From Candidatus Gottesmanbacteria bacterium RIFCSPHIGHO2_02_FULL_40_13 (lineage in GTDB: Bacteria; Patescibacteriota; Microgenomatia; 2-02-FULL-39-11): a stretch of 38,038 bases of DNA. Each line of letters starts with the position of its first letter. Position 1 is the first letter of the stretch. Position numbers and translations under genes: made by a program. Below the pieces are notes generated by a model, which saw only the letters and a list, made by a program, of their open reading frames with translations, had not been told where the DNA came from and did not search any database. This document shows, in pieces, positions 7,310 through 7,471 of this stretch. The stretch covers positions 9,852 to 47,889 of the forward strand of contig MFJN01000020.1 of assembly GCA_001779235.1 (NCBI GenBank). Direction: 5' to 3'.

Positions 7310-7339
7310 TTGACATCTTCTTAATATTAGTTTTATGAT
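7310..7339 (+). promoter_or_regulatory. sigma70-type promoter
   Basis: TTGACA (7310-7315), 18 nt spacer, TATGAT (7334-7339), in an AT-rich intergenic region. Confidence 0.65.
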
Positions 7340-7361
7340 GAATTAAATTAAATAATAATAT

Positions 7362-7382
7362 GATCGACCGTAAACGGAGATC
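7362..7382 (+). promoter_or_regulatory. Candidate cis-regulatory RNA hairpin, copy 2
   Basis: GATC-GA-CCG-TAAA-CGG-A-GATC. An alternative stem pairs GTAAACGGAGA (7370-7380) with TCTTCGTTTAC (7406-7416). Confidence 0.65.
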
Positions 7383-7428
7383 TCATTAATTTATGATGAA
7401 TCTGCTCTTCGTTTACATAAAGTTAATT

Positions 7429-7453
7429 AAACCACAATGAGTGGTTTTTTTTT
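7429..7453 (+). terminator. Leader terminator-like hairpin
   Basis: AAACCAC-aatga-GTGGTTT followed by a long T run, just upstream of ATG 7472. Confidence 0.55.
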
Positions 7454-7471
7454 GGAAAAAATGACCGTAAA

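Follow-up and report, generated by a model that had tools for sequence, protein, structure and literature searches.

The window analysed here, a stretch of 38,038 nucleotides from Candidatus Gottesmanbacteria bacterium RIFCSPHIGHO2_02_FULL_40_13, carries the same small hairpin core in two of its leaders, which raises the question of what this element is, what it does ahead of the genes that follow it and which partner, if any, reads it. To our knowledge, regulation in CPR bacteria is almost unknown, with few recognisable regulators and, for these lineages, no pure culture. The two copies of the hairpin, referred to below as P1, and the promoter-like boxes ahead of the second are as follows.

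2377..2397, plus strand: hairpin copy 1 (P1), TACC-GA-CCG-CACA-CGG-A-GGTA; model R1 38.3 bits, E 1.7e-7; -6.3 kcal/mol
7362..7382, plus strand: hairpin copy 2 (P1), GATC-GA-CCG-TAAA-CGG-A-GATC; model R1 34.3 bits, E 2.8e-6; -5.9 kcal/mol
7310..7339, plus strand: promoter-like TTGACA-18-TATGAT, 11 of 12 matches, with its -10 box 22 nt before copy 2

As the preliminary description of this DNA had stated for copy 2, and as the sequence confirms, the hairpin stands 22 nt past a -10 box, the core CGACCG-NANA-CGGAG is identical in the two copies, and the outer stem is changed on both sides (at two of its four pairs) with pairing retained. Two copies by themselves are weak evidence of compensatory change. 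The frequency of the motif, for which that description had proposed a comparison with shuffled sequence, lies above such a background, since GACCGNNNNCGGAG with at most one mismatch has four matches in the window against 0.42 ± 0.64 in 100 shuffles, none of which reaches four. The exact pattern also has four matches in the 1.29-Mb genome, with the outer stem forming only in the two leader copies, and a looser genome scan found a third copy.

C20:8890 (8882-8911; locus L074, 1501-1530), about 960 nt ahead of the window start: third hairpin copy, TGCT-AA-CCG-CAAA-CGG-A-AGCA

This third copy has an overlapping terminator and a clear TTGACA-17 promoter, heads the gene for a paralogous surface protein, and represents a class kept in many relatives. 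All 20 sequencing runs that cover window positions 1900-9100 are of DNA, from groundwater or soil metagenomes.

Compared across genomes at the level of sequence, the hairpin is a conserved RNA motif of one CPR class, the Microgenomates (Gottesman-, Levy-, Woese- and Roizmanbacteria, and others). It is made of a variable outer stem of 4-5 bp, a 2x1 internal loop (NA/A), a nearly invariant CCG/CGG stem and a YAMA loop, with the consensus (4-5 nt, often RGCY)-NA-CCG-YAMA-CGG-A-(4-5 nt, often GGCN), in which the bracketed arms pair. The pattern is present in 45 of 61 related genomes, including all 20 of the source genome's family, and the loops in the matches are strongly biased towards CAAA, CACA, TAAA and CCAA. 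When 30 unselected first matches were taken, one per genome, 11 had at least four consecutive outer pairs and the other 19 at most two, a split indicating that the pattern matches are a mixture of true hairpins and chance matches. The covariance model R1 was built from 40 instances (alignment A2) pre-selected for at least three outer pairs, alignments A4 and A5 were fitted to the model and the related genomes are non-independent; read with these limits, 94.4% of cells pair in the 65 distinct sequences found by R1, against 82.0 ± 1.1% in shuffles and 23-52% with a slid partner. All five outer pairs change on both sides among these 65 instances and the inner CCG/CGG is invariant. A further 76 sequences were reached via a neighbouring protein and not via the motif: all 76 matches lie on the gene's strand, 49 carry U.G at the first outer pair, where pairing is possible on the gene strand only, one shows a CG-to-GC double change in the inner stem, and loop columns 14-17 read C/T, A, A/C and A. 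Covariation over the 65 instances, strand specificity and the U.G wobbles support the view that the element acts as an RNA structure, as had been argued earlier from the outer-stem change between the two copies. Within a sample of 151 genomes from the phylum, the strong hairpin matches (G000, the source genome, and G046) all belong to the Microgenomates class, and the two matches outside it (G097 and G126) are weak, with E values of 0.006-0.009.

What follows P1 is, in nearly every instance, a terminator-like hairpin. The competing structures predicted in the two window leaders are these.

2391..2440, plus strand: predicted intrinsic terminator of the copy 1 leader, stem 2391-2434 plus T6; -24.4 kcal/mol, z -4.8
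7370..7416, plus strand: alternative stem of the copy 2 leader, taking up the P1 loop and 3' arm; -15.9 kcal/mol
7429..7453, plus strand: predicted intrinsic terminator of the copy 2 leader, 7-bp stem 7429-7447 and T9

A terminator-like hairpin with a T run lies at most 130 nt after P1 in 63 of the 65 instances, and in 51 of them the terminator 5' arm overlaps the P1 3' arm, as it does at copy 1 but not at copy 2. The copy 1 terminator shares 2391-2397 with the P1 3' arm, which the layout scan scores as a 6-nt overlap. In the copy 2 leader, the competing 11-bp stem noted previously proved to be the minimum-energy fold (-23.4 kcal/mol, z -2.6), and the hairpin and T run placed at 7429-7453 were recovered as a terminator with T9. 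P1 itself (-5.9 and -6.3 kcal/mol) is 10-18 kcal/mol weaker than its competitors (-15.9 and -24.4 kcal/mol), suggesting that P1 needs help to persist. Copy 2 belongs to a minority class of about a dozen similar leaders in which the stem that competes with P1 is separate from the terminator, and its leader without the P1 region still folds into the terminator. The strand freed in copy 2-like leaders makes no strong anti-terminator, and simple alternative pairing thus fails to explain them. In the third-copy class the conserved promoter, TTGACA-17/18-TAnnnT, stops about 10 nt short of the model start, which places P1 near the 5' end of the transcript.

Several further elements were seen in these leaders. 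In third-copy-class leaders the first terminator is succeeded by another conserved hairpin, CACCTGCCCGGTG, and a T run, at about 1568-1600 in L074 and at the same place in L076-L078, L083, L085, L087, L089, L097 and L099; this hairpin is identical in 10 of the 27 leaders listed for the class. Copy 2-like leaders also end in CCAC...GTGG terminators with a U run (window 7432-7444). Four loci with Levybacteria-type titles (L133, L136, L144 and L145) have a second terminator, AAAACGGAA...stem...CTTCCGTTTTTTT, about 150-330 nt past the hairpin, in which the ACGGA motif is repeated with no 5' ACCG partner, and the same four loci carry a conserved promoter, TCTTGACA-17-TATAnT, between the DUF2292 gene described below and the hairpin. 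In the window, 7253-7310 holds no terminator between the sortase gene and the copy 2 promoter; transcripts of the upstream operon would enter hairpin 2 and its terminator, which may double as the terminator of that operon. Two candidate features were rejected. TATAAA at 2370-2375 ends 1 nt before P1, too close to serve as a copy 1 promoter, and in relatives a DUF2292 stop codon comes down to 5-14 nt from P1. GGAGG in the P1 3' arm resembles a Shine-Dalgarno sequence and was weighed as a possible ribosome-binding stabiliser; in the third-copy class GGAAGC stands in its place, with no start codon after it.

The genes behind the hairpins are related. Two operons follow the copies in the window.

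2545..7253, plus strand: operon behind copy 1, with a signal-peptide repeat protein (398 aa), its C-terminally anchored relative (790 aa), an ORF of 157 aa and a sortase
7472..29823, plus strand: co-directional run behind copy 2, with a LamG/LTD secreted protein, a CAP/YkwD protein, dTDP-rhamnose and UDP-sugar enzymes, and GT2 and PMT_2 glycosyltransferases

A coding gene with a strong ribosome-binding site lies 60-250 nt after the hairpin on the same strand. For the most part the downstream ORFs encode proteins of three kinds, namely surface proteins of 375-460 aa that have a signal peptide and asparagine-rich repeats, small secreted proteins of the TasA/SipW type, and LamG/LTD proteins. The extent of the co-directional genes, up to 29823 on the plus strand, is as previously described. 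The earlier proposal that the element defines a regulon is borne out in part: the leaders share related downstream genes (surface, TasA-like, and LamG/LTD with the glycan run), and against it the hairpin leaders of the source genome amount to three, all within 8.3 kb of one contig. The tie between copy 2 and the glycan run likewise recurs in some orthologous leaders only, the LamG/LTD orthologue being preceded by a hairpin in G001 and G010 and by a weak 18-bit variant in G011, against none within about 850 nt upstream of it in G003. In the 790-aa protein (window 3827-6199) the N-terminal stalk is rich in proline, the repeats resemble those of the 398-aa protein, and RRRKK comes after a hydrophobic segment at the C-terminus, with no LPXTG motif evident; the protein probably serves this locus as sortase substrate or anchor.

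The candidate partner to which the comparison points is a small protein encoded directly upstream of copy 1. This link is new and was absent from the preliminary description.

2094..2270, plus strand: DUF2292/YezD-family gene, 58 aa, GTG start; Pfam PF10055 26.0 bits against a cut-off of 22
1995..2023, plus strand: promoter-like TTGACA-17-TATATT ahead of the DUF2292 gene, read by eye with no tool score

Its homologues are 57-58 aa long and, among the 120 matches listed, 67-95% identical (mostly at least 76%); they are named 'YezD family' or 'DUF2292 domain-containing' and are ascribed by their sources to Gottesmanbacteria, Curtissbacteria, Microgenomates and Patescibacteria. The protein is basic, with a net charge of about +4 by hand count from the sequence, and its AlphaFold model (pLDDT 91) is a helix followed by a beta-hairpin. 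Foldseek found no match to the model in the PDB at E <= 0.001, the AbrB/SpoVT-N and RRM rows at E 1.9-6.7 being too weak for a fold assignment to either; a wide VIA search gave a best Z of 3.1, and a PDB sequence search nothing below E 1.4.

Across 61 relatives, with hairpin presence defined by R1 at E <= 0.05, DUF2292 and the hairpin occur together in 32 genomes and are both absent from 26; the hairpin is found without DUF2292 in three (G005, G034 and G049, the last 99% complete and with a strong hairpin), and DUF2292 without the hairpin in none. In each of the 32 double-positive genomes the Pfam match is followed, 54-378 nt further downstream and on the same strand, by the hairpin, and the weak matches of G039, G051, G056 and G060 gain credit because they are sited exactly downstream of DUF2292. 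Approached from the protein, 80 loci from several candidate orders were picked by a DUF2292 peptide pattern only, in a species-level genome collection; R1 detects the hairpin in 76 of them with a threshold of E <= 0.05 and in 78 with one of E <= 0.17, always on the plus strand and starting 9-336 nt after the protein match; in the last two, core and terminator are visible by eye. Many of these 80 loci are publicly titled 'uncultured Gammaproteobacteria bacterium', labels which look wrong. In the phylum sample of 151 genomes, DUF2292 is found in G000, G046 and G117, all of the Microgenomates class; G117, with DUF2292 and no hairpin, was set aside and does not count against the link, its DUF2292 being of another subtype with another gene context. 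On this genome comparison the link between DUF2292 and the hairpin appears near-obligate.

How this link is to be read depends on the surrounding genes. G033 and G048 have retained the genes on either side, for the membrane protein and the surface protein, with DUF2292 and all hairpins (E <= 0.05) absent. The neighbouring cassette genes are distributed almost identically, 32 of the 61 relatives having the 211-aa membrane protein and 31 the surface protein, and since DUF2292 adjoins copy 1, both synteny and joint loss could stem from shared inheritance or a single deletion. Among the 65 instances, 31 have a DUF2292 ORF ending 5-209 nt before P1 (10 of them at 5-23 nt, the other 21 at 36-209 nt), and the remaining 34 have none within 420 nt. 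A stop codon 5-23 nt from P1 leaves no room for a promoter, and DUF2292 and the hairpin are thus expected to be co-transcribed at those 10 loci. The 211-aa protein (window 1363-1998), a single-pass membrane protein with no Pfam match, is encoded directly upstream of DUF2292 in 32 of the 61 relatives, completing a four-part cassette of membrane protein, DUF2292, hairpin and surface-protein gene.

We lean, without strong conviction, towards the reading that P1 is the sensing part, or anti-terminator, of a leader attenuator, held by a trans-acting factor that is most likely the DUF2292 protein. P1, placed in the 5' leaders or between the genes of surface-protein and glycosylation operons, would form first during transcription, and its 3' arm would then be captured by the much stabler downstream stem; at most loci this capturing stem would be the intrinsic terminator, with the result that transcription would stop unless P1 stays closed. 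A trans factor recognising the invariant NA/A internal loop and the CCG/CGG stem would hold P1 and allow RNA polymerase to read on, and the best candidate for this factor would be the DUF2292 protein, small (58 aa) and basic, whose gene immediately precedes copy 1, in a layout that may be likened to licT-RAT-bglPH but without a CAT or PRD domain.

The RAT sites of BglG, SacY and LicT are the closest parallel, being, like P1, short imperfect hairpins with internal loops that overlap an intrinsic terminator. In licT-bglPH, and with bglG, the regulator gene lies directly upstream of the hairpin-terminator-target unit, a likeness to the DUF2292 layout, and in these proteins a domain of about 55 aa is enough for RNA binding. 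However, the source genome has no CAT_RBD domain (PF03123, 0 matches), DUF2292 is a helix and beta-hairpin with no PRD sensor, and the Microgenomates hairpin is smaller, of other sequence and set before surface proteins rather than sugar uptake genes. The search of the source genome for CsrA, GlpP and Q-type antiterminators was also negative. ANTAR proteins (AmiR, NasR, EutV) offer another parallel, in that a protein-stabilised anti-terminator hairpin is set against a terminator and two such proteins are encoded in the source genome (C62:691-849 and C19:21001-21159, loci L111 and L112, in open frames of 238 and 267 aa). ANTAR sites, however, are two tandem hexaloop hairpins, whereas here there is one hairpin with a 4-nt loop, and the third-copy class has only about 10-15 nt between promoter and P1. 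The ANTAR family occurs in 17 of the 61 relatives, all of family f1 (the window's own), and in only 17 of the 35 hairpin-positive genomes, leaving 18 without.

Counting against an attenuator read by DUF2292 are the absence of an evident sensor in a protein of 58 aa, a predicted structure that resembles no solved RNA-binding fold in the Foldseek and VIA searches, and the strong hairpin of G049, a genome with no DUF2292. The CsrA-FliW-flagellin system, in which a small RNA-binding protein controls the mRNA of an abundant exported filament protein, suggests a possible logic for a regulator of this kind: one may speculate that a partner switch is tied to surface-protein export. CsrA differs in acting on translation at GGA loops, and has no counterpart in the source genome.

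Among other explanations, it is unlikely that a factor recruited at the hairpin acts on RNA polymerase itself, in the manner of LoaP, put or EAR, perhaps conferring terminator resistance along the 22-kb run. The dfn/LoaP system likewise places an intrinsic terminator after a small leader hairpin, which PMC12691694 describes as essential for read-through of the leader terminator before a long biosynthetic operon. A long operon also lies downstream here, and a P1 of the copy 2 type, which has no terminator overlap and no strong predicted anti-terminator, makes such a factor conceivable for copy 2. However, the LoaP hairpin is, according to PMC12691694, of the UNCG type and works with a NusG paralog, whereas P1 has a YAMA loop, a conserved internal loop and, in 51 of 65 instances, a direct overlap with the terminator. 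The NusG NGN domain (PF02357) has a single match in the source genome (85.6% complete) and one in each of five near-complete relatives (G001, G004, G006, G010 and G012), leaving no NusG paralog in any of these six, and it has no match among the 36 ORFs of the window. A scan with an ops consensus gave one match with one mismatch, far from the leaders, against 0.52 expected by chance. Searched against Rfam 15, EAR included, the window gave no match at gathering score and, at E <= 10, only unrelated snoRNA/miRNA rows far below their cut-offs, with no known riboswitch class. Weak terminator-like sites between 9000 and 28999 number 22, with the plus-strand sites inside ORFs, against 15.6 ± 4.6 in shuffles; this is not clearly above chance and makes no clear call for processivity. 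Of the antitermination put forward in the preliminary description, the terminator-linked layout is retained on the strength of the overlap in 51 of 65 instances, while the processive form of RfaH/ops or LoaP type finds no NusG paralog, ops site or UNCG loop to draw on, and the analogy with EAR finds no support in the Rfam search.

We think it quite unlikely that there is no switch at all and that hairpin and terminator together are a small stable RNA, stabilise the 5' end, or act in the DUF2292 transcript as an element of processing or of the 3' end. Abundant surface-protein mRNAs often bear 5' stabilisers, there are promoter-like boxes a short way upstream, a strong terminator closes the unit of about 60-90 nt and the hairpin comes regularly after DUF2292. 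The mutual exclusion of P1 and terminator in 51 of 65 instances is nonetheless typical of a switch and not of a two-hairpin RNA, some copies (the third copy, copy 2 and TasA-type leaders) have a promoter of their own without DUF2292 ahead of them, and a coding gene with a strong ribosome-binding site comes 60-250 nt later on the same strand.

Direct binding of a metabolite, P1 being a very small riboswitch or ion sensor, is very unlikely. The invariant internal-loop nucleotides and an expression platform with an overlapping terminator would suit it, and terminator-embedded mini-aptamers exist (the HMP-PP class), but an element of about 21 nt, whose inner stem has only 3 bp and whose tetraloop varies, offers little space for a pocket, the genes downstream encode surface proteins and not transporters or the enzymes of one pathway, and the tight link with a small-protein gene points to a protein partner. 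Ribosome-mediated attenuation, in which a ribosome at the DUF2292 stop codon would cover the P1 5' arm and favour the terminator, is highly improbable: the 10 loci with a stop codon 5-23 nt before P1 fit it, but where DUF2292 lies upstream in the other 21 loci its stop codon is 36-209 nt away, and 34 of the 65 instances have no DUF2292 ORF within 420 nt. That the hairpin is a double-stranded DNA operator for a transcription factor, as its inverted repeat and nearness to promoters might suggest, can practically be dismissed, given outer arms that covary without sequence conservation, U.G wobbles that pair on one strand only, an asymmetric 2x1 loop and the placement of every copy on the gene's strand.

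The attenuator reading, in which a DUF2292 protein would hold P1, is of a known kind of mechanism; what is new is the RNA motif, together with the candidate protein family. Searches of the main texts of open-access papers found no description of the motif and, among the best-ranked results, no report joining Patescibacteria or Microgenomates with an RNA motif or attenuator, and none of the papers found to name DUF2292 is about RNA. OscA belongs to the same Pfam family as YezD and the window protein and, according to PMC2996968, is a small protein of unknown function whose gene lies just upstream of an exported-protein gene in the oscA-sbp unit, an arrangement like that of the window; the NCBIfam OscA model, however, gives the window protein 17 bits against a cut-off of 85. 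It is possible, though we put it forward only tentatively, that DUF2292/YezD proteins are a hitherto unrecognised family of minimal (about 58 aa) RNA-binding antiterminators with the NA/A-CCG-YAMA-CGG hairpin as a RAT-like site, and that the two form a homeostatic circuit in Microgenomates by which the main surface proteins are made in step with their glycosylation machinery.

The hairpin gives a compact and easily searched motif, present in the leaders of a protein-glycosylation cluster and of what are probably the main cell-surface proteins, and surface structures are where these epibiont-like cells meet their hosts. The link with the hairpin provides DUF2292, a domain of unknown function, with a specific hypothesis, that of a minimal antiterminator, which is testable without culturing. 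If true, it would provide the first molecular function to test for OscA/YezD proteins in other phyla.
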